From Candidatus Versatilivorator sp. (GTDB taxonomy: Bacteria; Acidobacteriota; Terriglobia; Versatilivoradales; Versatilivoraceae): 64,000 nt of DNA. Both the position numbers and the translations under genes were made by a program. Numbering within the stretch: position 1 is the first letter of the stretch; the number at the start of each line of letters is the position of its first letter. Positions 4,604-51,470 of this stretch are shown piece by piece. The stretch is taken from positions 4,805,109 to 4,869,108 of the forward strand of contig OZ241970.1 in the NCBI GenBank assembly GCA_965204005.1, written 5' to 3'. Under the pieces are notes generated by a model. That model saw only the letters and a list, made by a program, of their open reading frames with translations, was not told the origin of the DNA and ran no database searches.

Positions 4604-4877
4604 GGTGGCCTCCTTTCTTGCAGTCTATAACACTGTAAGAAGGAAATCCATAACCTCCCTCTTGTGAACCAACAACCCACTGCCAGTTCTTCAGAGCAAA
4701 AAGCTGACGTGCACCCGACAGGCTGTTCCGATTGGATTGCTTGTCACAGGTGCGGTAGTATAACCGTGTACCGGCGGGATAGGGCAGGGCGGCCCCGGTT
4801 GGCTGTCAGTCCCCTGTTGAGGTTGGCCGGAGGGGATTGCAGTTCCGGAGACGGAAAATGGAGGTCAGCGCACGGCC

Positions 4878-7800
4878 ATGAACTCCGCCAATTCCGATAA
4901 CGCCGTCGCCATCGTCGGATACGCCTACCGCATGCCGGGCGGAATCCGCACCGACGACGACTTCTGGCGTCTGCTCAGTCAACGCGAGATTATCCAGGAG
5001 CCGGTCACCGACCGCTACGGCAGGGGCTATCAACCCGTAGGTGGATTCTCCGGCACGGTTCGCTTCGCCAGCCCCTTCGAGGGCCTGATCCGCGACGACG
5101 GGGAGAAGCTGTTCGATCGCGGTCTCTTCGGGCTGTCACAACACGAAATGTTGTCAACCGACCCGCAGCTGAGAATGCTGTTGATGTGCGCCTGGGACAC
5201 CTGCGAGCGGAGCGGCTGGGAACTACACTCGCTACGCAACAGTCCCACCGGAGTGTTTGTCGGCGCGCAAACCCCCCCGGTGGCGAACTGGCGTCCGTTG
5301 CGCGGCGCCGGTCCGTTTGACGTCACCAGCATCAGTCTGGCCATGCTGGCCAATCGCATTTCCTACCACTTCAACTTGATGGGACCGTCAACCACCTATT
5401 GCACGGCTTGTTCCGCCAGCCTCACCGCCTTGAACGCCGCGATGAACGCACTCCAGTGCGGCGATTGCGAGCAAGCCATCGTCGCCTCCGTCAATTACCT
5501 GGGAACGGCCCGGCTCAGCGCTGCCTTTAACGCCCTGGGCGTCATCAGCCCGGACGGCAAGTGCCACTCCTTCGATGCGGAGGCCAACGGCTACATGCGC
5601 TCGGAAGGGGCGTTCGTCTTTGCCATCAAGCCCCTGGAAGCGGCCGAGCGGGACGGGGACCCTATCCACGCCGTGGTGGAGGCAACGGCAGTCAACGCGG
5701 CCGGGGCTGCCGACGGCAGCAGCGGCCTGGCTCAGGGGCGTTACATCACCGCCCCGACCCGTCACGCGCAGGCGGATCTGATGCGCCTGGCCTGCGCTCG
5801 TTCCGGCCGCCAGCCGAGAGAATTCGACTACATAGAGGCCCATGCCACCGGCACCGTGGTGGGCGACCGCATCGAGGGGAACGCCATCACCGAGGCGTTC
5901 GGCGGTTCCGGCCGCGAAGCGCCGCTGCGGATTTCCAGCATCAAGAGCAACGTCGGGCACATGGAAGCCGCCGCGTTCCATTGCGCCCTGCTCAAGGTCG
6001 TGTTGATGATGCAGCGGCGCACCTTCGCGCCGATTTCGAAGAATTACCTGGTGCCGAATCCCGAGATCGATTTCGAGAGCTGCCCCATGCAGGTGCAGAC
6101 GACGTGTGAGCCCTTTCCCGAACCTCCCGTCGTGGTCGGCATCAATTCATTCGGTTTTGGCGGCGCCAACGGGCACTGCGTGGTGCGGGAATACCGCCCC
6201 GCGCAGCCGCGGCCCTGGTCGGTTGGGCTGGCCCCGCAAGCCGGCCACATGATTCCCCTGTCGGCGCGCACTTCCGGCTTGCTGGCGCGCAGCGCCCAGC
6301 AGCTACGCGAAGCCTTGGGCGGGCAGGAGTTGGATCTGTACACCCTGGCAGGCAATCTCAGCCGCCGCCGCACCCACTTCGCCGCCCGTACGTCCTTTGC
6401 GGTGCGCAACCGGCAGGAACTGGCCGAGGCGCTGGACGCCTTCATCCATGACCCCGCGCCGGTGGCCACGGTGGATGAGAGCGAGCGGCGGGTGGCCCTG
6501 GTATTCTCCGGGCAGGGCACTCAGTGGGCCGGTTGCGGCCGTGCGCTTTACGACGCCGACCCCGTTTTCCACCGCGTGATCGATGCGATTGAGGAACACT
6601 GGCGAGAGCACTCGGACAGATCGCTTCGCGATGCCGGTCTTACGGCCTGTCAGGAGGAACTCGACGAAGTCCGGTTGGCCCAGCCGGTCATTTTCATGAT
6701 CCAGTGCGCCCTGGTGGAGTTGCTCAAGACCTGGGGAGTCCATGCGGACTGCGTGGTCGGCCACAGCTCCGGCGAGGTCGCTGCAGCCTACGCCTGCGGG
6801 GCGCTGTCGTTGGCGGACGCCACCCGACTGGTTTTCCACCGCGCCACCCTGCAGCAGCGCGTTGCGGGTTCGGGTCGCATGCTGGCGGTCGGCCTCGACC
6901 GGACGGGCGTGGAGGAAATGCTCGATACCCTGGGCGTTCCCTTCCGGCCGGAGGAAGACCGTCCCGCGCGAGTGGAGATCGCCTGCGAGAATGCGCCGGC
7001 CAACACCGTCATCTGCGGCAGGGAGGCCGCCCTGCGGCCGATCATGGCGGAGTTGGACCGACGCAATCTGCAGAACCAGTTGCTGCCGGGCAATATCGCC
7101 TTCCACTCCACCGCCATGGACCCCATCAAGGACGACGCGCTGTCGGCGCTGTCCTTTCTCAACGGGTGCGCCTTCGACGCCGAGGTGCCGTTCGTTTCCT
7201 CGGTGACCGGCGTCCGCACAGAGCGATTGGACAACCACTACTGGTGGTCGAATATTCGCCGGCCGGTGCGGTTCGCGGCGGCCATGGAAACCATCCGGCG
7301 GGAGTACCGCCCCGACGTGGTGCTGGAAATCGCGCCGCACAGCGCCCTGCAAACCACCATCGCGCAGTGCCTGGAAAGCAGTGTGGCGCCGCCGCCGGCC
7401 TGTATTCCGACACTGATGAGAGACAGCGATGTGTGTCTGGGCTTCAATCGGGCTCTGGGTGCGCTTTTCATGGCCGGCGTCGATCTGGACTTCGCCGCCC
7501 AGTATCCGCGACCGGAGCCGGTCGCCCACCTGCTGCCCGGTCATCCCAGAGAAGAGCAGGCGACGATGGATATCATGTGCGACAACGAGATGTTTGTCCG
7601 GCAGGGGGAGTACTCCCATGGGCCGTTGGTCGGACACAAGGTTCCTGCCGATCACCTGCTCTTCGAGGCGCGGCTTTCCGAGAAGGACTTTCCCTGGCTG
7701 GCGGACCACCGCGTCCACCATGCGGCGATCATGCCGGGGGCCGGTTACATCGAACTCATCCTGGAAGCCCTGGGGGGCGTTCCCGTCTGCTTCGACGTGA

Positions 7801-10800
7801 TAGAGTTCCTCCAGCCCTGCCCCGTTCCCAAGACGTCGGTACGTCTGCAAACGGCCTTGCATCCGGTGGCCGCGGCTCCGGACGAATGGACCTTCACCAT
7901 TTCTTCCCGGCGGTACGACGTCGACGCCAACAGCGAGTTGCACTGCCGCGGGAAGGTGCGCCTGGTGGGCGACGACCACGCGGTGGCGGTGCCGTGCCGG
8001 CTCGCTGACATCGATACGACCCACTTCAAGCCCTCGTTTCTGGCGGACGACCGGAATTTCTACGAGCGCCTGGAGGCGGTCCTCAGCGAGACGTTCCAGT
8101 ACGGTCCCTATTTCAGGACCATCCAGCGCGTATTGGTGGATACGACCTCGAAGGCTTATCTTTTCGATGTAGAGATGGATAAGGGGCTATGGACGACGGG
8201 CCGGGAAGAGGGCTATGTCTCCTGTCCTCCGTTGTTCGACGGGGCGTTGCAGATCTTTCTGTACCACTTGCTGACCGCCGCCGACCTGTTCGCCATCCCC
8301 CAGCGAGCCGAAGGCGTGACATTCTTTCGCCCGCCCTCCGGCCCGCGGATCACCTGCCACGTGACCAAGCCCCGCGACGACTGGATGGATGCCAACGAGC
8401 GGGGACAGTATTCCGTTCGCCGCGGCGAACGGTCCGGCGGCAGTGTCAGTCTCTACGACAGCGCCACCGGAGACCTGGTCGCTCATATCGGCGAATACAC
8501 CTATTTCACCTCCAACCCGCGATGGAACGACCTGCCGGAAAGCAAGCACCGGATATCCTGGCAGCCGAAGTTCATCCCCGACGGCCCATGGCTCGCCGGC
8601 AGACTTCCCGAGGGCGAGATCGAAACCGCCGCCCTGATGGCCGCCCTCGAAAACCGGGAACAGGGCGAGCCCTACGCCTGTCACGCCGTCGAGTTCGCGG
8701 GCTGCCGGGGGCCGGAGCAGACCCTTCTCTGTCAGTGCATCGACCATCTCTCCAACGGCGGCGCACAGACCGAGTACTGGCTGGTTGGCGATACCGAAGA
8801 GAGTATCCGGGCCCACTACGACGCCTTCGGTCAACGCGATGCCGCCTTGCGTTTCGAGCGCCTGGACCCGTCTGCTCAACCGCAACTGGACTCGGGTCTG
8901 CTGCGTCCGGGCAGCGCCGAAATCATTTTTCTGCATGGGGATGGCGAGGCGGTCCGGCCGGAGGAATGGGAATTGGCGCGCCGATTGGCGGTGGCCGGCG
9001 GCCTGGCCCTGGTCTCTCATGGCGAAGGCGACCTCATCCGGCCCGTGGCCGGCTGGACCGTCGTTCGGGCCGGGCGGCGCACGACCCTGCTGCAGGCGCC
9101 GCAGTCCCGCGCGGAACCTCCCGGCCCACCAGAGCCGGTGGGCCCGCGATGGGTGCTCGGGGAGCGGGGAAGCCTGGCGCCGGACTGGGTGGCCCTGCTC
9201 GATGCGCCGGATGCGCATCCGGTCCCCGATGAAGCTCTCGCCGCCAACGCCCTCCATCTGCTCGAAACGTGGCCGCGGGCGGGCGGCCTGCGCGCCGTCG
9301 ACTTCTTCTGTGGCGAGGACCCGCAAGACCCGACGGGGGAAAAGGTGGTGTCGCGCTTCGTCGCCTTTGTCCAGGCTCTGGTTTCATACAGGATGGAGAA
9401 TGCGAACCACTCGTGCCGCTTGACCGTGGCGACGCGCGGAGCCGTGCTCGATGTGGATGATCCGCGCGGGAGTGCCCTGTGGGGGGCGGTTCGCAGCATG
9501 GCCGTGGAAATCGACGAGGAAGCCCGCATCGATTTTCGCCTGGTGGACCTGGGTGATGCCGGCGATCTGGAAACGATGGCCTGGCTGGCTCGGTGCGACT
9601 TGCGCGAGCGCGAACTGGCGGTGCGGGAGAACCGCTTGTGGGCGCCCAGGTGGATCGACATTACGGACCGGTATTCCCGCGTATCCGCCCGGGAGAAGCT
9701 CGCCTACCGGCTCGCTCTGGACAATCCGGGCCAGATCGCCGGTCTCGAGATGAAGACCCGCGAGCTCCCGGCGTTGGGGCCGGACGAAGTGGAGATCGAA
9801 GTGACGGCCGCCGCCCTCAATTTTCGAGACGTCATGGTCACGCTGGGCCTGCTGCCGGCGTTGGCCTATGAACGCTCGGCGCTGGGGCGTGAAGTCGGCA
9901 TGGAGGGAAGCGGGATCGTCCGGCGCGTCGGGTCGGCGGTGCGGGGTTGCCGGGCCGGTGACGAGGTGGCGTTCATACAGGGCGGCTGCATCGCCAATCG
10001 CGTCGTGGTCAGCCAGCATCTCGTTTTCGCCAAGCCGGACCGCCTGAGCATGGAAGAAGCCGCCTCGGTCCTGTCGGTCTATGTCACCGCCTACTATTCC
10101 CTGATTCACCTGGCCCGCCTGCGCAAGGGCCAGCGAGTCCTCATCCACTCGGCCATGGGCGGCGTGGGGCAGGCCGCCATTGCGCTGGCCAGGCACGTGG
10201 GAGCGGAGATTTACGCTACCGCCGGCAGCGAAGACAAGCGGGAGAAGCTGTTGTCGCTGGGCGCCCGAGCGGCTTTCGATTCGCACAGCCACGCCTGGCA
10301 TGACGACCTGATGGCGGCGACCGGAGGCGAGGGCGTCGACGTGGTGCTGAACTCCCTGGCCGGACGCCACGTTGAACTCTGTCTTCAGGCCCTGCGCCCG
10401 GGGGGCTGGCATTGCGAGATCGGCAAGGTCGACATTTACCGGGACAACGACCTCGGCCTGCGCATCTTCCGCAAGAACCTGCGCTTCGCGGCCATCGACG
10501 TGGACCGGCTGATGATCGATGATCCCCATCTATCGCGCGAGCTCTCCCAAGCCTGCCTGGCTTTGCTCGAAGAAGGCGCGCTGCCGCCGCTTCCGGTCAC
10601 CGTCTTTCCGTACAAGGACTACGCCAAGGCCCTTCGCCTGATGACCACCGGCCGCCACCAGGGGAAACTGGTGCTGAAAGCTCCCGAGGCTGCCGGCGAT
10701 GCGGGTTTCACGGTTGCCGATGTGCGGCCGTTTCTCGATCCCGAAGCGACCTACCTGGTCACCGGCGGCCTGGGCGGGTTCGGACTGCGACTGCTGCCTT

Positions 10801-11981
10801 ACCTGGTGGCCGCGGGCGCGCGCCATATCACCCTGATGGACCGCGACCCCGATCGCCGTCGGGACGCCGAGTGGGTCCGTCATTCGAGCGCTTTGGTGTA
10901 CATGGATGAGGATGCCGAATTCGATGTCCTATCGGGCGACGTGGCGGTGGAAGAAGATGTCCGGCGCTGCGTGTCTCAACTCAAAAGGCCGCTCAAGGGT
11001 GTGTTCCACCTCGCCGGCGCGCTGGACGACCGCTTGCTGGACGATCTGTCGGCCGAATCCGTGGCGACGGTTTTCGCACCCAAGGCCCACGGAGCTCTCC
11101 ATCTCCACCGCGCCACCGAGGGTTGCCCACTCGATACCTTTGTCCTGTTTTCCTCGACCGCCTCGGCCCTGGGCAACCCCGGACAGATCAACTACAGCGC
11201 GGCCAACGCATTTCTGGACGGCTTCGCCGCCTGGCGCCGCCGTCAGGGTCTTCCCTGTCTGTCCTACAACATGGCCGCCGTCGCCGACGCCGGCATGGCC
11301 GCGCGCAGTCTCCCCGTGTTGCGCATGATGAGGGCCGCCGGCCTTCCGCCGGTCAGCAGCGACTTCGCCATCGCCAACCTCGACTATGCCCTGCGCGCCA
11401 TGTCCGATCGAGACCACTTGATTACGGCCCTGTTCAAGCACCCGGCATGGACGATTGACTACCCGGACTACATGCGCATCGGGCGCTTGATGAACAATCA
11501 GGACGCCTTCAAGGCCGGCGTGGAGGGCGAGTTGACGCTGGAGAGCGTCGTGGCCCAGATTGCCGCCAAGGTCGCCGAGCTCTGCGGCCACGAGGAGGGC
11601 GACGTGGAGGAGCCGCTGGCCAGTTTCGGGCTCACCTCCATCTCGGTGGCCGAGCTGGGCACGTTCATCCAGACGCAGTTCAACTACCGGGTGAGCGCCT
11701 TGGAGCTGATGACTACCGCCTCGTGTCTGTCGCTGGCACGGGGTATCATCCATGGAAAAGAGAATGTCGAGGACGATGCGGCCGAGGCGGATACGGCCGT
11801 TTCCGAGGATGCCACCCTGGTTGCGCGGCAGCGCGCCCGCCGAGCGCCATCGGTATTCGCCAACGCGATCGAGGACCACTTTCCCCCTCCGCGAGATGGG
11901 TCCGGTACCGCCCCAGAATCCCCTGTCCCGAAACGGCCCCGGGCGGCCGACATGGCAATGGAGGAACAGGGGAAGGCGTAG
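4878..11981 (+). CDS. Type I polyketide synthase, single fully reducing module. Domain order: KS-AT-DH-(pseudo-MT/pseudo-KR spacer)-ER-KR-ACP, no TE.
   Basis: - KS: TACSAS with Cys codon at 5409-5411, plus EAHATGT and KSNVGHMEAAA.
- AT: GHSSGE with Ser codon at 6765-6767; IAFHS at 7095-7109.
- DH: LADHRVHHAAIMPGAGY with His codon at 7707-7709.
- ER: LNFRDV and HSAMGGVGQAAIALA (about 10146).
- KR: YLVTGGLGGFGL (about 10751) and NYSAANAFLD.
- ACP: FGLTSIS with Ser codon at 11637-11639. Confidence 0.93.
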   Translation: MNSANSDNAVAIVGYAYRMPGGIRTDDDFWRLLSQREIIQEPVTDRYGRGYQPVGGFSGTVRFASPFEGLIRDDGEKLFDRGLFGLSQHEMLSTDPQLRMLLMCAWDTCERSGWELHSLRNSPTGVFVGAQTPPVANWRPLRGAGPFDVTSISLAMLANRISYHFNLMGPSTTYCTACSASLTALNAAMNALQCGDCEQAIVASVNYLGTARLSAAFNALGVISPDGKCHSFDAEANGYMRSEGAFVFAIKPLEAAERDGDPIHAVVEATAVNAAGAADGSSGLAQGRYITAPTRHAQADLMRLACARSGRQPREFDYIEAHATGTVVGDRIEGNAITEAFGGSGREAPLRISSIKSNVGHMEAAAFHCALLKVVLMMQRRTFAPISKNYLVPNPEIDFESCPMQVQTTCEPFPEPPVVVGINSFGFGGANGHCVVREYRPAQPRPWSVGLAPQAGHMIPLSARTSGLLARSAQQLREALGGQELDLYTLAGNLSRRRTHFAARTSFAVRNRQELAEALDAFIHDPAPVATVDESERRVALVFSGQGTQWAGCGRALYDADPVFHRVIDAIEEHWREHSDRSLRDAGLTACQEELDEVRLAQPVIFMIQCALVELLKTWGVHADCVVGHSSGEVAAAYACGALSLADATRLVFHRATLQQRVAGSGRMLAVGLDRTGVEEMLDTLGVPFRPEEDRPARVEIACENAPANTVICGREAALRPIMAELDRRNLQNQLLPGNIAFHSTAMDPIKDDALSALSFLNGCAFDAEVPFVSSVTGVRTERLDNHYWWSNIRRPVRFAAAMETIRREYRPDVVLEIAPHSALQTTIAQCLESSVAPPPACIPTLMRDSDVCLGFNRALGALFMAGVDLDFAAQYPRPEPVAHLLPGHPREEQATMDIMCDNEMFVRQGEYSHGPLVGHKVPADHLLFEARLSEKDFPWLADHRVHHAAIMPGAGYIELILEALGGVPVCFDVIEFLQPCPVPKTSVRLQTALHPVAAAPDEWTFTISSRRYDVDANSELHCRGKVRLVGDDHAVAVPCRLADIDTTHFKPSFLADDRNFYERLEAVLSETFQYGPYFRTIQRVLVDTTSKAYLFDVEMDKGLWTTGREEGYVSCPPLFDGALQIFLYHLLTAADLFAIPQRAEGVTFFRPPSGPRITCHVTKPRDDWMDANERGQYSVRRGERSGGSVSLYDSATGDLVAHIGEYTYFTSNPRWNDLPESKHRISWQPKFIPDGPWLAGRLPEGEIETAALMAALENREQGEPYACHAVEFAGCRGPEQTLLCQCIDHLSNGGAQTEYWLVGDTEESIRAHYDAFGQRDAALRFERLDPSAQPQLDSGLLRPGSAEIIFLHGDGEAVRPEEWELARRLAVAGGLALVSHGEGDLIRPVAGWTVVRAGRRTTLLQAPQSRAEPPGPPEPVGPRWVLGERGSLAPDWVALLDAPDAHPVPDEALAANALHLLETWPRAGGLRAVDFFCGEDPQDPTGEKVVSRFVAFVQALVSYRMENANHSCRLTVATRGAVLDVDDPRGSALWGAVRSMAVEIDEEARIDFRLVDLGDAGDLETMAWLARCDLRERELAVRENRLWAPRWIDITDRYSRVSAREKLAYRLALDNPGQIAGLEMKTRELPALGPDEVEIEVTAAALNFRDVMVTLGLLPALAYERSALGREVGMEGSGIVRRVGSAVRGCRAGDEVAFIQGGCIANRVVVSQHLVFAKPDRLSMEEAASVLSVYVTAYYSLIHLARLRKGQRVLIHSAMGGVGQAAIALARHVGAEIYATAGSEDKREKLLSLGARAAFDSHSHAWHDDLMAATGGEGVDVVLNSLAGRHVELCLQALRPGGWHCEIGKVDIYRDNDLGLRIFRKNLRFAAIDVDRLMIDDPHLSRELSQACLALLEEGALPPLPVTVFPYKDYAKALRLMTTGRHQGKLVLKAPEAAGDAGFTVADVRPFLDPEATYLVTGGLGGFGLRLLPYLVAAGARHITLMDRDPDRRRDAEWVRHSSALVYMDEDAEFDVLSGDVAVEEDVRRCVSQLKRPLKGVFHLAGALDDRLLDDLSAESVATVFAPKAHGALHLHRATEGCPLDTFVLFSSTASALGNPGQINYSAANAFLDGFAAWRRRQGLPCLSYNMAAVADAGMAARSLPVLRMMRAAGLPPVSSDFAIANLDYALRAMSDRDHLITALFKHPAWTIDYPDYMRIGRLMNNQDAFKAGVEGELTLESVVAQIAAKVAELCGHEEGDVEEPLASFGLTSISVAELGTFIQTQFNYRVSALELMTTASCLSLARGIIHGKENVEDDAAEADTAVSEDATLVARQRARRAPSVFANAIEDHFPPPRDGSGTAPESPVPKRPRAADMAMEEQGKA

Positions 11982-11983
11982 CC

Positions 11984-13726
11984 ATGCCGAATGCTCTGTT
12001 GGTCTATCCCGAAAATCCCCCTTCCTATTGGGGCGCGAACTTCGCACTGGACATGCTGGGCATCAAGGCAGCCTTCCCGCCTCTGGGTCTGCTCACCGTC
12101 GCCGCCATGTTTCCGCCGGACTACGACCTCCGCGTCGTGGACATGAATGTGACTCCCCTGGGAGAGTCGGACCTGGAGTGGGCGGACCTGGTGTTTACCT
12201 CCAGCATGATCGTACAGCGAGAGTCGCTGCGGACCGTCATCGGGCGGTGCAACCGGGCCGGTGTTCCGGTGGTGGCGGGAGGACCCTATCCCACCTCCTT
12301 TCACGATGAGATCCACGGTGTCGACCACTTCGTGCTGGATGAGGTGGAGGAGACCTTCGGCGATTTCCTGCGCGACCTGGAGAGCGGCACGGCCAATGCC
12401 GTTTATCGCGAGCCGCGGAAACCGGATGTGACCCGGACACCCGTCCCGCGCTTCGACCTCATCGATACGAAGAACTACCACTCGATGTGCGTGCAGTTCT
12501 CCCGGGGCTGCCCGTTCGACTGCGAGTTCTGCGACATCACCAAGCTCTACGGTCGCGTGGCCCGGACCAAGTCGCCGGATCAGATGGTGGAGGAGTTCGA
12601 GGCCTTGTATCGACTGGGCTGGCGTGGCCGCCTCTTCCTGGTTGACGACAACTTCATCGGCAACAAGCGAGCGGCAATGACGCTGCTGTGGGTCATCGCC
12701 GAATGGCAGCAGGCTCGTGGCTATCCCTTCTCCCTGTTCACCGAAGCGAGCATGAACCTGGCCCGAATGGACGAACTGATGGACGTCATGGTTGAAGCCG
12801 GATTCAATTCCGTCTTCGTGGGTATTGAAACGCCCAATCCCAAGGCCTTGCTGAAGATGAAGAAACCGCAGAACGTGGACAAGCGGGACGATAGCTACCT
12901 TCTCAATTCCGTCCGAACCATCCAGCGGAAAGGGATGCAGGTCATGGGAGGGTTCATCCTGGGCCTGGACGGGGACGATGAGAGCGTGTTCGACCTGCAA
13001 ATCGACTTTATCCAGGCAGCCGGCATTCCGATGGCTCTGATCGGGTTGCTGGGCGCCCTGAGGGGCACGGACCTGTATCGGCGCCTGGAGTCGGAAAACC
13101 GGCTGTTGGACGTTTCCATCGGCACGAGCTCCACGGCCCTCAACTTCGTGCCGGAGATGGATCCCGAGGTGTTGATCGAGGGATACCGGCGCGTGACCGC
13201 CAGTGTCTACGACCCGACTCTGGAGAATTACTTCCAGCGTTGCCTGACGTTCTTCGAACACCTGACACCCGTTCCGCACCTGCACAAACCCCGGAACAAG
13301 ATCGCGCTCTACACGGACATTATGGGTCTGCGCCGAAAGCTGTCCAACGAGCAGTTCCCGGCCTTGGTGGAGTTCATTGGCAAGGTCTCCAAGCGCCATC
13401 CCCGCATGCTCCCGGAGGCAATTCGCCTGGCCGCATTGGGTTACCATTTCGAAAAGGCCACCCGCCAGCAGATGACCATCCACGACTTCAAGGCATTTTT
13501 GGAGGCCGAGGCGGAACGTTTCAGGGGAACCTCTTCCGGTTCAGTCAAGGAAGTGGAGGAAATCGGAGCTCGCCGGCAAGAGTTGTTGGTGCGAGCACAG
13601 GCGCGCAACCGATCGATTCCGGACGACTTTCGATATCTTGGAGATGGAATCGAGTCTGCGTTGGAGTCCTTTCGAGTCTCGGTGAATGCTCAGGCGGAAC
13701 ACCTCGCCCGCTCGGCGGCAGTGTAG
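11984..13726 (+). CDS. B12-binding radical SAM protein (class B rSAM, DUF4070-type C-terminus), paralog 1
   Basis: The ATG lies 2 nt after the PKS stop. The N-terminus LLVYPENPPSYWGANFAL...PPLGLLTVAAMFP is the cobalamin-binding-type module. The CPFDCEFC cluster motif is at 12509-12532. The ORF-track start at 11723 runs inside the PKS and is rejected. Confidence 0.88.
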   Translation: MPNALLVYPENPPSYWGANFALDMLGIKAAFPPLGLLTVAAMFPPDYDLRVVDMNVTPLGESDLEWADLVFTSSMIVQRESLRTVIGRCNRAGVPVVAGGPYPTSFHDEIHGVDHFVLDEVEETFGDFLRDLESGTANAVYREPRKPDVTRTPVPRFDLIDTKNYHSMCVQFSRGCPFDCEFCDITKLYGRVARTKSPDQMVEEFEALYRLGWRGRLFLVDDNFIGNKRAAMTLLWVIAEWQQARGYPFSLFTEASMNLARMDELMDVMVEAGFNSVFVGIETPNPKALLKMKKPQNVDKRDDSYLLNSVRTIQRKGMQVMGGFILGLDGDDESVFDLQIDFIQAAGIPMALIGLLGALRGTDLYRRLESENRLLDVSIGTSSTALNFVPEMDPEVLIEGYRRVTASVYDPTLENYFQRCLTFFEHLTPVPHLHKPRNKIALYTDIMGLRRKLSNEQFPALVEFIGKVSKRHPRMLPEAIRLAALGYHFEKATRQQMTIHDFKAFLEAEAERFRGTSSGSVKEVEEIGARRQELLVRAQARNRSIPDDFRYLGDGIESALESFRVSVNAQAEHLARSAAV

Positions 13727-13768
13727 GAAACAGCCCTGTAATTTGCGCGACAGGACAAGAAGGTTGCC

Positions 13769-15541
13769 ATGCCCAATGCGCTTCTGGTGTATCCCCAATA
13801 TCCTCCTTCCTACTGGGGAGTCAATTTCGCGCTGGAGATCTTCCGGATCAAGGCTGCCTTTCCACCCCTGGGTCTGCTCACCGTCGCCGCCATGTTCCCC
13901 CCGAAATACAACCTGCGCGTGGTGGACATGAACGTGGCTCCCCTGGAGGAGGCCGACCTGGAGTGGGCGGACCTGGTCTTTACCTCCACCATGGTAGTCC
14001 AGCGGGAATCCCTGCGGACCGTTACGGAGCGGTGCAACCGGGCCGGCGTCCCGGTGGTGGCCGGAGGGCCCTATCCCACCACCTATCATGGCGAGATCGG
14101 CGGTGTGGACCATTTTGTGCTGGATGAGGTGGAGGAGACCTTTGAAGATTTTCTGCGAGACCTGGAGAACGGCACGGCCGCAGCCATCTACCGCGAGCCG
14201 CGAAAACCGGATGTGACCAGGACACCTGTTCCGCGCTTCGACCTCATCGACACGAAGGCCTACTACTCCATGTCCGTACAGTTCTCCCGCGGATGCCCGT
14301 TCGACTGTGAATTCTGCGACATCACCAAGCTCTACGGCCGGGTGGCCCGGACCAAGTCGCCGGACCAGGTGCTGGACGAATTCGACGTGCTCTATCGCCT
14401 GGGCTGGCGGAGCCATGTCTTTCTGGTTGACGACAACTTCATCGGCAACAAGCGGGAGGCGATGAAGTTGGTGCGTGCCATTGTCGAATGGCAGAAGGCC
14501 CGCGGCTACCCGTTTTCCCTGTTTACCGAAGCCAGCGTGAACCTGGCTGGTATGGATGAATTGATGGACGGCATGATTGAAGCGGGCTTCGATTCCGTGT
14601 TCCTGGGGATCGAAACGCCGAATCCCAAGGCCTTGCGCAAGATGAAGAAACCGCAGAACGTCAGCAAGCGGGAAGAGAATTACCTTTTCAACTGCGTTCG
14701 CAAGATCCAACAGAAGGGGATGCGGGTCGATGGAGGATTCATCCTGGGTCTGGATGACGATGACGAGGGCGCCTTCGATGCCCAGATCGATTTCATTCAG
14801 GAAGTCGGCATTCCCATGGCCATGGTCGGGTTGTTGAACGCTCTGAAAGACACCAATCTCCATGATCGCCTGAAAAGGGAAAACCGGCTATTGGAAGAGC
14901 CTTTCGGAAGCAGCACCGACGGCGTCTTCAACCTGACGAGTGTCAACGTCGCCCTCAACTTCAAGCCGGAGATGAATGTCGAGACATTGATGGAGGGATA
15001 CCGGCGCGTCATCACCACCATCTATGACCCGACTCTCGAGAAATACTTCCTGCGCTGCCTGACGTTGCTTGAACACCTCAGGCCCATTCCGCACCTGCCG
15101 AAGCCCACGAGCAAGAACTCGCTTTTCTTGGCCATCATGTCTGTTCGCCGGCAACTCTCCGCCAAGCAGATCCCGGCCTATACGAAGTTCATCGCCAAAG
15201 TCTCCCGGGCCCATCCCGGCTTGCTGCCGGAGGCGATCCGCCTGGCCGCCCTGGGCTACCACTTTGAAAAGATCACCAGTCAGCAAATTGCCATCGGCGA
15301 CTTCAAGCGGTTTTTGGCGACCGAATTGGGGAGATTCAAGGAAGCGGTTTCGCACGATGTTCGGGATGGGGAAGAAATCGAGAAACGGAGGCAGGCGTTG
15401 TTCACGCAAACCGATGCGCGCCATGCGTCGATACCCGATGAATTCCGCTACCTCGGCGATGGAATCGACGATGCCCTGGAATCGTTCCGGTCCGCCGTGA
15501 GCGATCAGGTAGACCGGTTCACACGATCGCCGGCGATATAA
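13769..15541 (+). CDS. B12-binding radical SAM protein, paralog 2
   Basis: Collinear with paralog 1 and roughly 70-75% identical by eye. CPFDCEFC is at 14294-14317. An RBS-like AAGAAGG lies upstream. Confidence 0.88.
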   Translation: MPNALLVYPQYPPSYWGVNFALEIFRIKAAFPPLGLLTVAAMFPPKYNLRVVDMNVAPLEEADLEWADLVFTSTMVVQRESLRTVTERCNRAGVPVVAGGPYPTTYHGEIGGVDHFVLDEVEETFEDFLRDLENGTAAAIYREPRKPDVTRTPVPRFDLIDTKAYYSMSVQFSRGCPFDCEFCDITKLYGRVARTKSPDQVLDEFDVLYRLGWRSHVFLVDDNFIGNKREAMKLVRAIVEWQKARGYPFSLFTEASVNLAGMDELMDGMIEAGFDSVFLGIETPNPKALRKMKKPQNVSKREENYLFNCVRKIQQKGMRVDGGFILGLDDDDEGAFDAQIDFIQEVGIPMAMVGLLNALKDTNLHDRLKRENRLLEEPFGSSTDGVFNLTSVNVALNFKPEMNVETLMEGYRRVITTIYDPTLEKYFLRCLTLLEHLRPIPHLPKPTSKNSLFLAIMSVRRQLSAKQIPAYTKFIAKVSRAHPGLLPEAIRLAALGYHFEKITSQQIAIGDFKRFLATELGRFKEAVSHDVRDGEEIEKRRQALFTQTDARHASIPDEFRYLGDGIDDALESFRSAVSDQVDRFTRSPAI

Positions 15542-15584
15542 GGCACCATTCCGAGTCGCCGCTGATCGGGGAGGGAAAGAAACC

Positions 15585-18092
15585 ATGACCGAAAGAACGG
15601 CCGCCGACACAGCGGTGGCGCCGCTCAATGGCAACTTGCCGCGGCACTGTCAGAAAGACGTCGATTCCCTGCGTCGATTCGTTCACGAAACCGTCAGCCG
15701 GGAAGCGCCGGCGGCCGCCGTTTCGCCCAGTGATTTCAAGGAGGTATTCCTGACCGGGGCGACCGGATTCATCGGTCGTTTCTTCCTGCGCGACCTCTTG
15801 AGACAGGACCCCGAGCTCCTGGTGCACTGCATCGTCCGGGCCAAGAGTGTCGATCACGGTTTCGGGCGCATACGCGCCGCCTTCGAGCGGGCCGGCATCT
15901 GGGACGAATCCTTCGCGCCGCGCATATGCGTCGCAGTCGGTGACGTCGCCGAGACGCGATTCGGCCTGGGCGAAGCGGATTTCGATGCCCTGTGCCGGCG
16001 GGTCGACGCCGCCTATCATCTTGCGGCCTCCATAGATCTTGTGTCGTCCTATCTCGCCATACGCAAGGTCAATACGTTCAGCCTTCGCAACGTGCTCGAA
16101 TTGTGTTTGCGCCAACGCTTCAAGCACCTGTTCTACGCCTCGACCATGGGTGTGTTCCCCCAGTATTTCTGCAGCTTCGCACATGAATTCAAGAACAGCC
16201 GCATCGACCACCAGATGCAGCCGGACCTCGAAAGCATGAAGAGAATGTTCCCGCTTGGGATGCTCGGCTACCCCTGGAGCAAGCTGACATCCGAGCAGGT
16301 GCTCCTGTTCGCGCAACAGGCCGGTATGCCGCTGGGGATTTTCAGGTTGCCGCAAACCGGCATGTCCAGCTCGGGATATACGCCGGAGCACGATCTCAGC
16401 GTGCGCCTGTTTGCCGCGGTGGTCGATGCCAAGACGTTGCCCCAGGAATTCACCTTTCGATCCAGCAACGAAGCCGTCGATGCGCTGAGCGAAGCCTGTA
16501 CGGCCATTTCCCTGAATCCCCGACGTCGTTTCACGATCTACCATTGCTGCAACCCGCAGTTGGATCATTACGACCTGGAACCGGCCGATTTCGGGCTCTA
16601 TTGGCCCGAGGTTCCCTACGAGGCGTTCAAGCGCGCCTGCCAGGCGCGCGGTGAAAATTCCCCGCTCCATGGCCGCTGGGCCGTGTTCGATCACTTGGGG
16701 AAATACTGGTTCAGCAGGAACAAGCCGAAGGACAGGCTGCCCATTTGCGACCGCGCCATCCGCGAGGACGGCTTGCGCCCGATCAAGTGGATGGGCATGT
16801 TGAGCAAGCTGAGACGCTCGGGGCAGTGGGTCAGGGACCATCGGGAAGACTGGCCGCATCAGATTCCGCAAACCCGCCTGGACTTCGACTGCCTGACCGC
16901 CCGGGCCGAGCGCTACGCCGAGGAGGAGGGCGTCCCCTTCGACTCGGCCTGTCCGGAGTGGATGCGTCAGGGCCTGCAGCAACTGGTCGGAGCTTTGAAT
17001 TCGCCGGATGCGCGGCTGTTGGAGGACAAGGTTGGCGACGTCGTCTTTGAAATGAACCGTTTCTTGCGCAACAACGCACGGTTGGCCCGCGAACGGGGGC
17101 AGCACCCCGAGATCGAACGGGAGCAGACCCTCCGGCCGGTCTTCATCGTCGGCATCAACCGCACCGGCACGACCTACCTGCACCGGCTGATGTCGCGCGA
17201 CAGGCGGTTCTGGACGTTGCGGCTGTACGAGTACGCCGAGCCGGTCCTCTCGACAGAGGAGTACGCCACGGTTGCGGGCACGCCCGACGACCCTCGCCGA
17301 TTGCGAACCGAGGAAGGGCTGCGAGCATCCGACATCTTCAAGGTCCTGGAGGGGGTTCACGATTTCAACGTCGACGAACCGGAAGAGGAATTCCCGATTT
17401 TCAGGATGGCATTCTCGGCATGGGTCTCTACCTCTCGATTCCATGTGCCGGAATATGGCCGGTGGCTGGACGCGAACGGCTGCGGAGAGGCTTACGCCTT
17501 CTTTCGCCGCACCCTGCAGCATTTCGCCTGGCAGCGGCGTCAGCGTGAGCCCGGGCGCCAGGGCCAGTGGTTGCTCAAGATGCCCTTTCACCTCATGGAA
17601 ATGGAAACCCTCATCCAGACCTGCCCGGACGCCCTGTTCATCCAGACCCACCGCGAGCCCTCGCAGTTCATGGGATCCTGGAACAGCCTGGTGGAGCGGG
17701 TACGCTCCCTTTGCAGCGAGCCCCTGCCGCCGCATGAGTTCGGCCGCGAGCAGTTGTCCTTCATGAGCGGCATGGTGGGCAGGGCCGTTCAGTTCCGGGA
17801 AAGCCGTCCCGAACTGGAGCACCGCTGGATGGACGTGAACTACGTCGATCTGGTCGAGGATCCCATGGCGGTCGTCCAGGCCATCTATGAGCGGTTCAAC
17901 TGGCCGCTCAATCAAGGGGCGATCAACGCCATGGAGGACTGGCTGTTCCGGCAGGCGGAGCGCCGCCGCGGCGAGCCGCGGCATCGCTACGACCTGGGGG
18001 ACTACGGCCTGACGCCAGAGGACGTCAACGCCGCCTTTGCGGGTTATCGCGACTTTCTGACTCGCAGGGCCATTCGGAAACCCGGCCCGTAG
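15585..18092 (+). CDS. Fusion protein: N-terminal thioester/acyl reductase (NAD_binding_4-like SDR) plus C-terminal PAPS-type sulfotransferase
   Basis: Reductase half: FLTGATGFIGRFFLRDLL (about 15752) and YPWSK (YxxxK). Sulfotransferase half: PVFIVGINRTGTTYLHRLM (5'-PSB-like loop, about 17158) and IQTHREPSQFMGS (3'-PB-like). GGAGG RBS upstream. Confidence 0.8.
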   Translation: MTERTAADTAVAPLNGNLPRHCQKDVDSLRRFVHETVSREAPAAAVSPSDFKEVFLTGATGFIGRFFLRDLLRQDPELLVHCIVRAKSVDHGFGRIRAAFERAGIWDESFAPRICVAVGDVAETRFGLGEADFDALCRRVDAAYHLAASIDLVSSYLAIRKVNTFSLRNVLELCLRQRFKHLFYASTMGVFPQYFCSFAHEFKNSRIDHQMQPDLESMKRMFPLGMLGYPWSKLTSEQVLLFAQQAGMPLGIFRLPQTGMSSSGYTPEHDLSVRLFAAVVDAKTLPQEFTFRSSNEAVDALSEACTAISLNPRRRFTIYHCCNPQLDHYDLEPADFGLYWPEVPYEAFKRACQARGENSPLHGRWAVFDHLGKYWFSRNKPKDRLPICDRAIREDGLRPIKWMGMLSKLRRSGQWVRDHREDWPHQIPQTRLDFDCLTARAERYAEEEGVPFDSACPEWMRQGLQQLVGALNSPDARLLEDKVGDVVFEMNRFLRNNARLARERGQHPEIEREQTLRPVFIVGINRTGTTYLHRLMSRDRRFWTLRLYEYAEPVLSTEEYATVAGTPDDPRRLRTEEGLRASDIFKVLEGVHDFNVDEPEEEFPIFRMAFSAWVSTSRFHVPEYGRWLDANGCGEAYAFFRRTLQHFAWQRRQREPGRQGQWLLKMPFHLMEMETLIQTCPDALFIQTHREPSQFMGSWNSLVERVRSLCSEPLPPHEFGREQLSFMSGMVGRAVQFRESRPELEHRWMDVNYVDLVEDPMAVVQAIYERFNWPLNQGAINAMEDWLFRQAERRRGEPRHRYDLGDYGLTPEDVNAAFAGYRDFLTRRAIRKPGP

Positions 18093-18321
18093 TTCTGCCG
18101 AGCCCCAATGGCTGGCGGGGTCGCCGGGTGAAAGAAGGGAACCTCTGGCTTGTGTCGATAGATCAGTCTGGCGGGCTGCAGGTTGCGCCGGGCAAGTCCC
18201 CGCCGGCCATTCGGGCCGAACCGCAAGCAGGATCCCCGGACAGCCTGGTGCAAGCCGGGCCACGGAATTCCACTCGGATCTTCATCCTGGCGGACGATCC
18301 CCCCCGTGGCCGCTATGGCCG

Positions 18322-18972
18322 TCATTTTTCCGATTTTGCGACGACCTTTTCGAGCACTGCTTCGGCGGATTTGAACATCTCCGTCAGAAGCTGCTTGCGC
18401 CGGGTCTTCAGGCGCTCAATATACATCCACAGGGCATTGGTGATGCCGGCAACGACCGCCTCCCGTGTGTTGAGCGAAAGGGTACGGTCGTTCTGGTACT
18501 CGTATTTCTCAATGGTGAAGTTGGCGATGTGCTGGATGTTCTCTCCGATGACATCGAAATCGACAGAGTCACGCATCGGAATGGTAGCGGATGCTTCTGC
18601 TGCTCCCTCACCCCCGCCGACGTCGGCCTTCCCGGTGATGGCTTCGATGGCCGCACTCTGCGAATCGTAAATCGACATGATTCCATGAAAGCCGCTGACG
18701 GTGACAATTTCGCGGATCGAATCGGAGAGGTTGCAGATACCGAAGGCCTTGCCTTCCGGGTTGAATTTCTTGGCGATGATCAGGCAGACGCGAAGGCCTG
18801 CGCTGCTGATGTAGCCCAATTGCCCGAAGTCCAGGATCATGGCCCGTTCATCGGGATCGATTCCGGCTTCCAAGACATTCTGGACTTCAATGTAGTTGTT
18901 CCCGTCGATACGACCGATCGGCGCAGCGATCAGAATGCCTTCTCTACGGCTCCACTTGACTTGGGCTGGCAT
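18322..18972 (-). CDS. STAS-domain protein (anti-sigma-antagonist fold) with an uncharacterised C-terminal extension of about 100 aa
   Basis: IDGNNYIEVQNVLEAGI...MILDFGQLGYISSAGLRVCLIIAKK...FGICNLSDSIREIVTVSGF is a typical STAS/SpoIIAA pattern. An AAGGAG RBS precedes the ATG. Confidence 0.7.
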   Translation of the reverse strand: MPAQVKWSRREGILIAAPIGRIDGNNYIEVQNVLEAGIDPDERAMILDFGQLGYISSAGLRVCLIIAKKFNPEGKAFGICNLSDSIREIVTVSGFHGIMSIYDSQSAAIEAITGKADVGGGEGAAEASATIPMRDSVDFDVIGENIQHIANFTIEKYEYQNDRTLSLNTREAVVAGITNALWMYIERLKTRRKQLLTEMFKSAEAVLEKVVAKSEK

Positions 18973-19156
18973 GGCGTTACTCCTTTCAGGTCAGACATCC
19001 GGAAAAAACCTGTCCATCATAGCATGATACGTGGCGGATGCGGTCGTATTGGGTTGCCGTACGGTGTGTTTCTGTAGACACCGCGAAGTTTGTTCACGGA
19101 ATTGCAACAGCCCGAGGTCGCCACTTGAGCCGGATTGAAAAACGTGAGCGAGGACG

Positions 19157-20785
19157 ATGCCATTGAACCCGGACTCGAATCTCCGGACGAGAGCCGCCAC
19201 CGATCCATCGGCGGCGGGAGGCTCCCTGCAACTTTCCGGAAGACAGCTTTTGCTGGCCATGACCGGCGTGATGACGGCCATGTTTCTGGCAGCCGTGAGT
19301 CAGATCAATATCGCCACCGCAATGCCTCGCATCCTGGCCGACCTGGGCGGGTTCGACCGCTACGCCTGGGCTTCGACCGCATACCTGGTTGCCTCCACCA
19401 TTGCGATTCCCATCGCGGGCAGATTGGCCGATCTGTTCGGACGCAGGCTGTTCTTCATCCTGGGCCTGGCGATCTTCATGATCGGCTCGATCGCGGCGGG
19501 TTTGAGCCAGTCCATGAACCAGCTCATCGCTTCCCGCGCCATCATGGGCATCGGTGGCGGCACTCTCATGACCAACAGTATCGCCGCCGTGGCAGACCTG
19601 TTCCCAGCGGGAGAACGGGGCAGGTACATGGGGTTGATCGGTCTTGTCTTCGGCCTGTCTTCGGTGATCGGGCCGCCGGTGGCCGGTTTGATCACCGACA
19701 CCTTGTCCTGGAACTGGGTCTTTCTGATGAATGTTCCGGCCGGAATCCCGGTGTTGCTGTTGATCGTTCGGGCTTTCCCCGGGATCGCTCCCGCTGGCGG
19801 GAAGCGCAGGCTGGACACCCCGGGAATGGCCACCCTGACACTGGCGGTGGCCTGCCTGATGATCGCGCTCTCCCTCGGAGGCGTTCACTACCGGTGGAGT
19901 TCGCTTCAGGTCAGCGGACTCCTGGGTTTCGGATTGGCAATGGCCGTGATTTTCCTGGTGATCGAGTCCAGGTCCGACTCTCCCATCATGCCCCTGGAAA
20001 TTTACAGAAACCGGGCGGTGGCGGTTTCCGTGATGGTCACCCTGCTGACCGGGTTCGGATTGCACAGCACGGCGCTCTTGATCCTGCTCTACTTCCAGGG
20101 GGTGGCGGGCTCAACCGCGACCGGCAGCGGCGGCCTGCTGACCCCCATGATGCTTGCTATGGTATTCGGGGCCATCGTGTCCGGGAGACGGCTCTCCGGA
20201 ATCGGGGGAAACTACCGGAGGCAGGCCCTGATTTCCTCGGGAGCCATGGCAGTGGGCATCTTTCTCCTCTCCACCATGAACGAGAATACGAGTCTTGCCC
20301 GGGCGGTGGCCTACGTTTCGCTTGCGGGGCTGGGACTGGGCGGCGCCATGTCCACCTCCAACCTGGCCGTCCAGAACTCGGTCCCCCTCCGGCTGGTTGG
20401 CAGCGCCACCGCCGCGATTCAGTTCTCCAGGTTGTTCAGCGGCACGCTGGGTCTGGCCGTGTTGGGGGTCGTGTTGGCGGTGAGCTTCTCATCCAGGTTG
20501 GAGGAAACCCTCCCGGAATCCGTCAGTGCCGGGCTTGCCCGAGGGCAGTTCGAGGCCGTCAGGCAGAACCCGCGGGCGCTTGTCGATCCCTCGGCGATCG
20601 AGGCGCTGAGAACCGGCTTCGAGGAGAGGGGGCTGGACGGCACTCAGATGGCGGACAAGTTGCTCGGCGCACTCAGGTCGGCGCTGGTCGGGGGATTGGG
20701 AGATGCCTTCACGCTGAGCGCGCTGGTGGTGGCGCTTTCGTTCCTCGCCGCACTGTTCCTGAGAGTCGAGAAGCGGAGAGGCTGA
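19157..20785 (+). CDS. MFS transporter, DHA2 (EmrB/QacA-like, 14-TMS type) drug:H+ antiporter family
   Basis: GRLADLFGRRLFFILGLAIFMIGSIAAG and FPAGERGRYMGL are motifs typical of DHA2 exporters. The 542-aa protein is hydrophobic throughout. Confidence 0.85.
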   Translation: MPLNPDSNLRTRAATDPSAAGGSLQLSGRQLLLAMTGVMTAMFLAAVSQINIATAMPRILADLGGFDRYAWASTAYLVASTIAIPIAGRLADLFGRRLFFILGLAIFMIGSIAAGLSQSMNQLIASRAIMGIGGGTLMTNSIAAVADLFPAGERGRYMGLIGLVFGLSSVIGPPVAGLITDTLSWNWVFLMNVPAGIPVLLLIVRAFPGIAPAGGKRRLDTPGMATLTLAVACLMIALSLGGVHYRWSSLQVSGLLGFGLAMAVIFLVIESRSDSPIMPLEIYRNRAVAVSVMVTLLTGFGLHSTALLILLYFQGVAGSTATGSGGLLTPMMLAMVFGAIVSGRRLSGIGGNYRRQALISSGAMAVGIFLLSTMNENTSLARAVAYVSLAGLGLGGAMSTSNLAVQNSVPLRLVGSATAAIQFSRLFSGTLGLAVLGVVLAVSFSSRLEETLPESVSAGLARGQFEAVRQNPRALVDPSAIEALRTGFEERGLDGTQMADKLLGALRSALVGGLGDAFTLSALVVALSFLAALFLRVEKRRG

Positions 20786-20820
20786 CGGCCCTTTTCTCCG
20801 CAGGGAACGGGGGATAAGGA

Positions 20821-20847
20821 TGCGGGCGGGACGCCCGCGCTCCCGGG
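20821..20847. repeat. Short copy of the GCGGGC-loop-GCCCGC hairpin motif, also present in the 40754 and 41059 repeats
   Basis: tgcgggcgggacgcccgcgctcccggg lies between the convergent MFS and ankyrin genes. Confidence 0.6.
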
Positions 20848-20934
20848 GGGCGACGCGCGGCCACGCCGGGTCGCTTCATGACCAACTCGAATGCCTGCAG
20901 GCGAGCGTCCAGCCTGTCATCGCCCCCGAACTCC

Positions 20935-21627: not shown

Positions 21628-21815
21628 GGCATTACCCCTCCTGTAAAATACTGCTGGTAAGGAAGTTGATCCGTTCCAACCGGGAAAGCCAGCGCTCACG
21701 CAGTCTACCACCAAACCGCCGGAGTTTGAAGGCATCCGGCAATCCTTGGAGAAATTTGGGGCGTGATGGATCTTAGTGGGTGTACGGCTTAATCGCGATG
21801 CGGTAAACTACGGGC

Positions 21816-51324: not shown

Positions 51325-51470
51325 GTTTCAGACAAGTGATCAGTGGCCAGTGGATAGTTATTGAATCGATGCGTTAAGCGCCTTGCCGATCTTGGCGTCG
51401 CATGTCCTTGAAGGAGATGCACCTGTTTCCTTGTCTATTCGTGTTCATTCGTGTCCATTCGTGGTTCGCC
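51325..51470 (+). repeat. Family R3 composite element, copy C
   Basis: The order is GTTTCAGACAAG, then TGATCAGTGGCCAGTGGATA, then the core GTTATTGAATCGATGCGTTAAGCGCCTTGCCGATCTTGGCG, and finally the 10-bp periodic run tctattcgtgttcattcgtgtccattcgtggttcgcc. Confidence 0.7.

Follow-up and report, generated by a model that had tools for sequence, protein, structure and literature searches.

The swf family (for 'sponge symbiont widespread FAS', FAS being fatty acid synthase) was described in 2013 in marine-sponge bacteria by Della Sala et al. (PMC3908369). The founding clusters, PS11G3, PSA11D7 and POR_0547-0550, show 58-73% mutual identity, and they encode SwfA, a synthase of 2349-2361 amino acids (aa) with ketosynthase (KS), acyltransferase (AT), dehydratase (DH), enoyl reductase (ER), ketoreductase (KR) and acyl carrier protein (ACP) domains, SwfB, which joins a thioester reductase (R) to a sulfotransferase (ST) in 832-839 aa, and SwfC, a B12-binding radical S-adenosylmethionine (rSAM) enzyme of 585 aa with a CX3CX2C motif, which is missing in one of the three (PMC3908369). 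It was proposed that SwfB turns the terminal carboxyl into a primary sulfate, with methylation of the chain as a possible role of SwfC, and the ACP of SwfA was shown experimentally to be phosphopantetheinylated by Svp (PMC3908369). The assignment of swf to Poribacteria was withdrawn in 2014, and the family ranks among the top two polyketide synthase (PKS) families by abundance in high-microbial-abundance sponges (PMC4245539). In 2022, swf-like clusters were reported in metagenome-assembled genomes (MAGs) of Nitrospirota, Latescibacterota and Acidobacteriota, where they were remarked to be independent of taxonomy and their function was called unknown (PMC9426513), and in 2023 one was found in 'Thalassonella', its product still being called unknown (PMC10227082). 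The cluster considered here, swfA-swfC1-swfC2-swfB, lies in a 64,000-nt stretch of contig OZ241970.1 (4,805,109-4,869,108), referred to as the window and numbered from its first position, and by its motifs and architecture it is almost certainly a member of the swf family. An initial annotation of this DNA had taken the combination of genes to be unrecognised, but it is the same as that of the swf cluster of 2013, for which the same alkyl-sulfate hypothesis had been put forward (PMC3908369). Cluster type and hypothesis alike are thus already published, and the window adds to the family a new member with a lineage-specific pair of SwfC subtypes.

The operon and its membership of the swf family

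The four genes of the operon are separated by 2, 42 and 43 nt, each with a Shine-Dalgarno-like purine run (GGAGG or AAGG) ahead of its start codon, and they are followed by a STAS/helical gene on the opposite strand and by a gene of the major facilitator superfamily (MFS) on the same strand as the operon (Table 1). For swfC1 the candidate starts are the ATG at 11984 and that of a longer GTG open reading frame (ORF) from 11723; since all orthologues open with MPNALLVYPE, the ATG is the true start. The arrangement is far beyond chance, and dozens of genomes keep this gene set in synteny. The observations of the initial annotation prove accurate throughout, every domain call included: the ORF map returns the four packed + strand genes with exactly its coordinates and gaps, the Pfam scan bears out a KS-AT-DH-ER-KR-ACP protein without a thioesterase, two enzymes that each carry B12-binding, Radical_SAM and DUF4070 domains, and an 835-aa fusion of NAD_binding_4 with Sulfotransfer_3, and the STAS gene and the DHA2-type MFS gene are both present. 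Its expectation that the four genes would be kept together in related genomes also holds.

The comparison with the founding clusters was made through published motifs, architecture and protein sizes. The KS domain of SwfA has HATGT, not HGTGT, at aa 322, as published for swf, and DPQLR at aa 95, where the published motif is DPQQR with the second Q replaced by I or V. Among 59 SwfA orthologues from related loci, DPQLR is a conservative variant found in five, and variants with V, M and I also occur. In the AT domain, GHSSGE at aa 628 and IAFH at aa 740 are both published swf motifs, and an exact QCALVEL stands at aa 609, a motif that the founding paper places at aa 591-597 and that serves as a swf-specific PCR target (PMC3908369). 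HATGT, GHSSGE and GNIAFHS are invariant in all 59 orthologues. The sizes of SwfB (835 aa) and of the two SwfC proteins (580 and 590 aa) agree with the published values, and the window SwfB is 56-91% identical to its R-ST relatives at 75 syntenic loci. The members of the corresponding database clusters bear no Swf names, only generic labels such as 'SDR family oxidoreductase'. With the founders the window therefore shares the SwfA architecture and diagnostic motifs, the R-ST fusion, the B12-binding rSAM enzyme with its CX3CX2C motif and the protein sizes, and the likeness extends to the flanks: fosmid PS11G3 carries beside swf a 218-aa STAS/anti-anti-sigma ORF with a POR_0546-like C-terminus and, as ORF17, a SupE-like permease, and the window correspondingly has a 216-aa STAS protein and a 542-aa MFS protein. 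It differs from them in its A-C-C'-B order with two swfC genes, where the published orders are A-B-C, A-C-B or A-B, in having DPQLR instead of DPQ(I/V)R, and in its host, which is an acidobacterium resembling Ca. Versatilivorator.

By Pfam, SwfA contains neither a thioesterase nor a methyltransferase domain, and no thioesterase is found in any of the four proteins. The DH motif is HRVHHAAIMP, in which the catalytic His and the Pro are kept and Gly is replaced by His (HxxxHxxxxP vs HxxxGxxxxP), and the DxxxQ motif is likewise kept. The unusual serine motif of the ACP, GLTSI, recurs in 48 of the 59 orthologues. Behind the ACP runs a low-complexity tail of about 80 aa (aa 2287-2367; 11736-11981), and the first 50 or so residues of SwfB form a conserved extension (aa 1-52; 15585-15740), in which P13, L14, L18, P19, C22, D25, L29 and F32 are invariant.

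The reductase-sulfotransferase and its natural fusions

SwfB matches NAD_binding_4 (PF07993) at aa 56-291 (E 5e-45) and Sulfotransfer_3 (PF13469) at aa 518-775 (E 3e-31), which bears out both domain calls of the initial annotation: the C-terminal half does hit sulfotransferase models, and the N-terminal half, in which MxaA-like catalytic residues are found, is a thioester reductase. Its matches in the PDB are the MxaA reductase 4u7w (E 5e-34), 8v1x, 2zq5 (E 5e-33) and 2z6v; the last two, labelled 'putative uncharacterized protein' by their depositors, are presumably the mycobacterial sulfotransferases Stf1 and Stf9. In 20 diverse homologues, the R domain has an invariant TGxTGFxG loop and invariant Y229, S232 and K233, which align to the GYAQSKW of MxaA, and the ST domain has invariant RTGTT..HRL, K665-x-P-x-H669 and THRxP..S698, which align to 2zq5. 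Both domains look active on this evidence. With MxaA-type R domains (4u7w; TIGR01746) SwfB shares the extended short-chain dehydrogenase/reductase fold, the TGxTGFxG loop and the GYxxSK catalytic motif, but its R domain is free-standing, acting in trans to the PKS in most clusters, and has the ST fused at its C-terminus. With the mycobacterial Stf enzymes (2zq5, 2z6v; Sulfotransfer_3) it shares the loops that bind 3'-phosphoadenosine 5'-phosphosulfate (PAPS) and the conserved K-x-P-x-H, but the ST of SwfB is fused to R and its predicted substrate is a PKS-derived alcohol. MxaA (4u7w), the closest solved R domain, is known as a four-electron reducer that goes on to the alcohol.

A search of 1.84 billion representative proteins for fusions returned three single polypeptides with the order KS-AT-DH-ER-KR-ACP-R-ST, P0267 (3179 aa), P0271 (3183 aa) and P0278 (2932 aa), all of them with SwfA-type motifs. 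These natural SwfA-SwfB fusion proteins are new here, and as "Rosetta stone" fusions they argue that the R-ST didomain acts on the chain held by the ACP of SwfA, which is likely the case. The spacer between ACP and R is about 130 aa long in all three and corresponds to the tail of SwfA plus the conserved N-terminus of SwfB; because the two together match this spacer, they may perhaps be docking elements in the split proteins. An R-ST didomain with GYPWSK also ends multimodular PKSs of 4100-6700 aa with canonical KS motifs (P0284, P0286, P0300, P0314), and the coccidian multimodular FAS/PKS proteins end in the same way (PMC3908369). Such modular synthases resemble the swf system in their contiguous C-terminal R-ST didomain with GYPWSK, and differ from it in being multimodular and in having the canonical DPQQR and HGTGT motifs in their KS domains.

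Two SwfC radical SAM enzymes

SwfC1 and SwfC2 both have the cluster motif CPFDCEFC (CX3CX2C; at aa 176 in SwfC1), and both have kept the B12-binding domain. They have in common with class B rSAM methyltransferases the N-terminal B12-binding Rossmann domain and the radical SAM core with CX3CX2C. The two copies are about 71-72% identical, which equals the divergence among single-copy SwfC proteins of different phyla. In neighbour-joining trees, the C1 and C2 sequences are each monophyletic in 100 of 100 bootstraps, and they are sisters in only 28. The 10-aa insertion that marks C2 is also found in single-copy SwfC proteins of Nitrospirales, and the insertion-bearing sequences are monophyletic in 0 of 100 bootstraps. 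As the C1 and C2 clades are separate and their divergence is of cross-phylum level, the lineage appears to combine two old SwfC subtypes, and the window belongs, by these comparisons, to a small clade with two seemingly anciently diverged SwfC copies.

A recent tandem duplication of swfC was also considered, and it is ruled out by the bootstraps (sister in 28/100) together with the cross-phylum level of divergence. In one other locus with the window layout (L003), the first swfC copy is of a third type, which is common to two single-copy loci (L028 and L057).

As regards their chemistry, the nearest solved structures are those of the B12-dependent rSAM sp3 C-methyltransferases QCMT (9CCB) and CysS, and in the phylogeny of 2013 SwfC groups with methyltransferases, nearest to HpnP (PMC3908369). 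C-methylation by SwfC is the best guess from these relationships, and the malonyl-type AT of SwfA and its lack of a methyltransferase domain speak for it as well. Intact A-B clusters that contain no swfC further imply that SwfC is an accessory tailoring enzyme.

Proposed pathway and competing explanations

The current model proposes that SwfA would iterate on malonyl-CoA, its AT being of the malonyl type and no C-methyltransferase being present, to assemble, bound to its own ACP, an acyl chain that is for the most part saturated. Since SwfA has no thioesterase, the chain would be handed to the R domain of SwfB and released by reduction with NAD(P)H, first to an aldehyde and next to a primary alcohol, which the Stf-like ST domain would convert with PAPS into a primary alkyl sulfate. 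SwfC1 and SwfC2 would be optional tailoring enzymes, most probably for C-methylation of unactivated sp3 carbons of the chain, and the two divergent subtypes possibly make two modifications in this lineage. The MFS pump would then export the anionic lipid, and the STAS/helical protein would regulate or scaffold the system. A swf cluster that makes a sulfated, rSAM-tailored lipid along these lines is the best explanation overall and a probable one; the narrower claim of a (methyl-branched) alkyl sulfate as the end product is tentative and falls a little short of an even chance. The initial annotation had set out the same sequence of reducing PKS, reductive release, O-sulfation, rSAM tailoring and export, which stands as the best available reading, with a product that is inferred and not observed.

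Several observations weigh against this pathway. The PS11G3 cluster, expressed in E. coli BAP1 with Svp and screened by liquid chromatography coupled to mass spectrometry (LC-MS), yielded no new metabolite, and the 2013 authors pointed out that alkyl sulfates are not known as widespread in sponges (PMC3908369). In the literature reached, which extends to 2023, no swf product has been detected or assigned; it is the cluster family that was already published. No genes for PAPS synthesis, a phosphopantetheinyl transferase or cobalamin lie within the 64-kb window. Against TIGR01746 the R domain reaches 180.8 bits, where the curated cutoff is 213.35, with TGATGFIG and Y229/K233 present, and whether reduction ends at the aldehyde or at the alcohol is not readable from sequence. 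Among the PDB matches of SwfC is also AprD4, a diol dehydratase, and the scores of SwfC against every curated B12-rSAM family are weak (no more than 66 bits, where the cutoffs lie at 250-775); because of these two facts, methylation by SwfC is not established.

The possibility was raised by the 2013 authors, with reference to curacin, that sulfation could instead be an activation step (PMC3908369). The sulfate would then be a leaving group, as in CurM/Ols, for elimination, for alkyl transfer (e.g. to an ether) or for rSAM cyclisation or coupling, and the mature product would be free of sulfate. The empty heterologous screen and the absence of any sulfated alkyl lipid known as widespread in sponges (PMC3908369) fit this idea, as does the tight coupling of rSAM genes to R-ST in 51 loci. 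It is nevertheless unlikely: the cluster contains no thioesterase or other candidate enzyme for elimination or transfer, the efflux pump linked in this clade is suited to an anionic amphiphile, and there are intact A-B-only clusters without rSAM, from which it follows that A-B alone must yield something useful. The CurM/Ols ACP-ST-TE (thioesterase) modules do resemble swf in coupling a PAPS-dependent sulfotransferase to the end of a PKS; their chemistry, as is generally known, requires a beta-hydroxyacyl thioester and not a primary alcohol. The swf system differs in having no thioesterase, in an Stf-like ST that is fused to a thioester reductase, and in its likely substrate, a primary alcohol and not a beta-hydroxyacyl-ACP, and decarboxylative olefin formation is impossible with its domain set. 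A departure of comparably low probability concerns SwfC, which might not methylate at all and might instead couple chains tail to tail through a C-C bond (giving a bolaform alpha,omega-disulfate), form rings, desaturate or hydroxylate. The curated-family scores far below cutoff and the non-methylating AprD4 among the matches point in this direction, two deep subtypes stand side by side here, and class B rSAM enzymes are chemically diverse (PMC12931638); against it stand the C-methyltransferases QCMT and CysS as best solved relatives, the retained B12-binding domain and the placement of SwfC with methyltransferases, nearest HpnP (PMC3908369).

The reductase and the synthase leave room for a further variant, in which R would stop at the aldehyde or take a partly reduced chain, and ST would sulfate a secondary hydroxyl that a skipped dehydration had left in mid-chain, to give a sulfated hydroxy-aldehyde or hydroxy-alcohol. 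The non-canonical DH motif HxxxHxxxxP would agree with it, and reducing domains of iterative PKSs may be optional according to the 2013 authors (PMC3908369). The catalytic His, the Pro and the DxxxQ of the DH are all kept, however, the position of R-ST directly behind the ACP in P0267-like fusions suggests sequential action on the same terminus, and MxaA, the closest solved R domain, reduces as far as the alcohol, so that this variant appears quite improbable. The oldest interpretation, a wcb/rkp-type system that makes the lipid anchor of a capsular polysaccharide, goes back to the annotation of the 'poribacterial' copy by Siegl et al. in 2011, as recounted later (PMC3908369). It is effectively refuted: the KS of SwfA has neither the DPQQR nor the HGTGT that WcbR and RkpA keep, the 2013 phylogeny sets Swf apart from these proteins (PMC3908369), and no genes for polysaccharide synthesis or export occur within the 64-kb window. 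The SupA clusters resemble swf in a mono-modular FAS-like PKS that is widespread in sponge microbiomes and in a homologous SupE-like MFS permease. SupA carries an in-line C-methyltransferase domain, and SwfA differs in having no methyltransferase domain by Pfam. The 2013 swf paper mentions neither an R-ST fusion nor an rSAM gene for sup (PMC3908369), which is a further difference.

Distribution and possible transfer and erosion of swf loci

R-ST relatives were surveyed in one genome per GTDB species, and the window proteins were mapped onto the loci by tblastn. The survey gave 75 species-level loci, all from MAGs of roughly ten phyla, with 56-91% identity, labelled Acidobacteriota, Nitrospirota, Latescibacterota, Gemmatimonadota, Binatia, Tectimicrobiota, Alpha- and Gammaproteobacteria, Opitutales, Rhodothermales and Syntrophobacterales. 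There is no cultured host among these 75 species, and many of their bin names (SB06xx, RHO, IRC, Langseth) presumably come from sponge studies. The order A-C-B is the commonest (47 loci), about seven loci are intact A-B clusters without C, two have A-B-C and one has B-A-C; the layout of the window, A-C-C-B-STAS(-)-MFS(+), is found in four loci (L001, L003, L009 and L031), all from Acidobacteriota.

The window is 96.8% identical in nucleotides to an ENA metagenome scaffold (L076) with the same layout, and about 92% identical to Ca. Versatilivorator sp. (Acidobacteriota, Terriglobia). Over about 13 kb (4890-18077), nucleotide identity remains at about 80% to four loci labelled Tectimicrobiota and Nitrospira (L011, L006, L007 and L016). 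Because this identity persists across phylum labels, horizontal spread of swf is suggested, and the data are consistent with transfer among co-resident symbionts and agree with the published remark on independence from taxonomy (PMC9426513).

The locus of Acidobacteria bacterium SB0661_bin_38 (L031) is a mosaic, with SwfC proteins, STAS and MFS 81-90% identical to those of the window and with SwfA and SwfB at 72% and 67%, which suggests recombination or replacement of cluster parts at a conserved locus. Other loci are eroded, with large internal deletions in L072 (9409-11352) and L017 (6710-9913), frameshifts in L065 (8219-9958), and remnants of swfB only in L069 (10001-10804), L073 (10001-10754), L074 and L075. 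L073 has kept the STAS and ankyrin neighbours known from the window and has lost A, C, C' and MFS. The eroded loci in some lineages are new here, and they may reflect either real decay or assembly error.

The STAS/helical protein and the probable exporter

The STAS gene converges on the operon and diverges from the MFS gene. The AlphaFold model of its product has a pLDDT (predicted local distance difference test) of 78.5, and Foldseek matches it to SpoIIAA/RsbV with a template modelling (TM) score of about 0.85; the serine motif SSAGLR is invariant, and a disordered linker separates the STAS domain from a C-terminal helical hairpin. Of the 49 complete loci, 33 have the helical domain (about 85 aa) no farther than 1.5 kb from swf and 22 have the STAS domain there, the helical domain being the more constant companion. 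In most cases the helical domain forms an ORF by itself, about 82 aa long and placed just upstream of swfA, sometimes in two copies (e.g. L004 93-335 and 815-1063, L005 707-949, L027 919-1170); Acidobacteriota have it joined to STAS, and in other groups it stands alone. No credible Pfam match was obtained for it at E <= 10, and Foldseek of the whole STAS-protein model matched the STAS half only. The domain corresponds to POR_0546 and ORF19 in the tables of 2013, where it was not counted into the operon (PMC3908369). That it travels with swf is new here, and it makes the helical protein a candidate for a conserved fourth swf component. It may act in regulation through partner switching, as a scaffold or in ACP binding; the STAS-ACP complex 3ny7 is among the fold matches of the STAS protein.

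The MFS protein scores just below the TIGR00711 (DHA2) cutoff of 230.2 bits. Its linkage to swf is confined to the acidobacterial clade and the published fosmid PS11G3.

Table 1. Genes and domains of the swf locus in window numbering
Feature	Positions	Strand	Basis
swfA, mono-modular fully reducing type I PKS/FAS, 2367 aa, no thioesterase, no methyltransferase	4878..11981	+	Pfam, motifs
KS domain, aa 8-386	4899..6035	+	PF00109, PF02801; TACSAS active site ~aa 177, HATGT 322
AT domain, aa 542-869, malonyl-type IAFH	6501..7484	+	PF00698 E 7e-66; GHSSGE, IAFH, QCALVEL
DH domain, aa 916-1174	7623..8399	+	PF21089, PF14765; HRVHHAAIMP, LFDGALQ
ER domain, aa 1634-1933	9777..10676	+	PF08240, PF00107, PF13602
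KR domain, aa 1957-2136	10746..11285	+	PF08659 E 3e-52; GGLGGFG NADPH loop at 1964
ACP domain, aa 2227-2286, unusual GLTSI serine motif	11556..11735	+	PF00550
swfC1, class B radical SAM, 580 aa, subtype without 10-aa insertion	11984..13726	+	PF02310, PF04055, PF13282
swfC2, class B radical SAM, 590 aa, 10-aa insertion aa 384-393	13769..15541	+	Pfam, alignment
swfB, thioester reductase and PAPS-type sulfotransferase fusion, 835 aa	15585..18092	+	Pfam, TIGR01746, PDB matches
R domain, aa 54-369	15744..16691	+	TGATGFIG loop, Y229-x3-K233
ST domain, aa 518-775	17136..17909	+	PAPS-binding motifs RTGTTYLHRL, KMPFH, THREP...S
STAS (SpoIIAA/RsbV-like) and C-terminal helical hairpin protein, 216 aa	18322..18972	-	Pfam STAS aa 9-106; AlphaFold model
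Helical domain, aa 139-214	18331..18558	-	Invariant motif GENIxxIANFTIEKYEY; no Pfam family
DHA2-like MFS efflux permease, 542 aa, probable exporter	19157..20785	+	Pfam; TIGR00711 225.7 bits

Genomic context

Directly upstream of swfA lies an ISKra4-family transposase (2898-4193, - strand; 292.7 bits against a cutoff of 205), which is overlapped by a DUF6788 ORF (4178-4603, -). Over 4000-21500, the 274-nt leader included, there is no Rfam match at E <= 1, and no riboswitch was found there. Counts of predicted promoters and terminators are not above the shuffled expectation, and these scans are therefore uninformative.

The rest of the window encodes PolA, UvrA, several transposases and TPR, NHL and ankyrin proteins. 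Further transposases are one of the IS110 family (29363-30757, +), a DruA-like/DDE_Tnp_1_assoc DDE transposase (30855-32660, +) and another of the DDE type (55035-56411, -). Downstream of the MFS gene, a reprolysin-NHL-fn3-TIG protein (22795-27427) is split into two overlapping ORFs by one extra A near 23788 (ACATTAACTG vs ACATTACTG); the 97% identical scaffold L076 encodes it as one gene of 1543 aa, and the split points either to a pseudogene with a frameshift or to an error of assembly. Eukaryote-like proteins are represented by an ankyrin-repeat protein (20935-21735, -), a second NHL-repeat protein (51383-52699, +) and a GPP34 (Golgi phosphoprotein 3) protein (58808-60271, +). Repertoires of the ankyrin/NHL/GPP34 type are typical of sponge symbionts.

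Biological meaning

The window offers a clean, intact example of swf with two rSAM genes in a near-complete acidobacterial MAG. It leaves the overall picture of swf unchanged. The natural fusions tie the reductase-sulfotransferase to the carrier protein of the PKS. It is conceivable, if on balance doubtful, that swf stands for undetected but widespread anionic lipids, rSAM-tailored alkyl sulfates, of many sponge-symbiont phyla, with the two SwfC subtypes making two modifications, the POR_0546-like domain being a fourth component, and R-ST being a general module for release as a sulfate ester that is used in multimodular PKSs as well. The A-B, A-C-B and A-C-C'-B variants of the cluster would predict a series of products that differ by 0, +14 and +28 Da, which could possibly serve as a guide for lipidomics.

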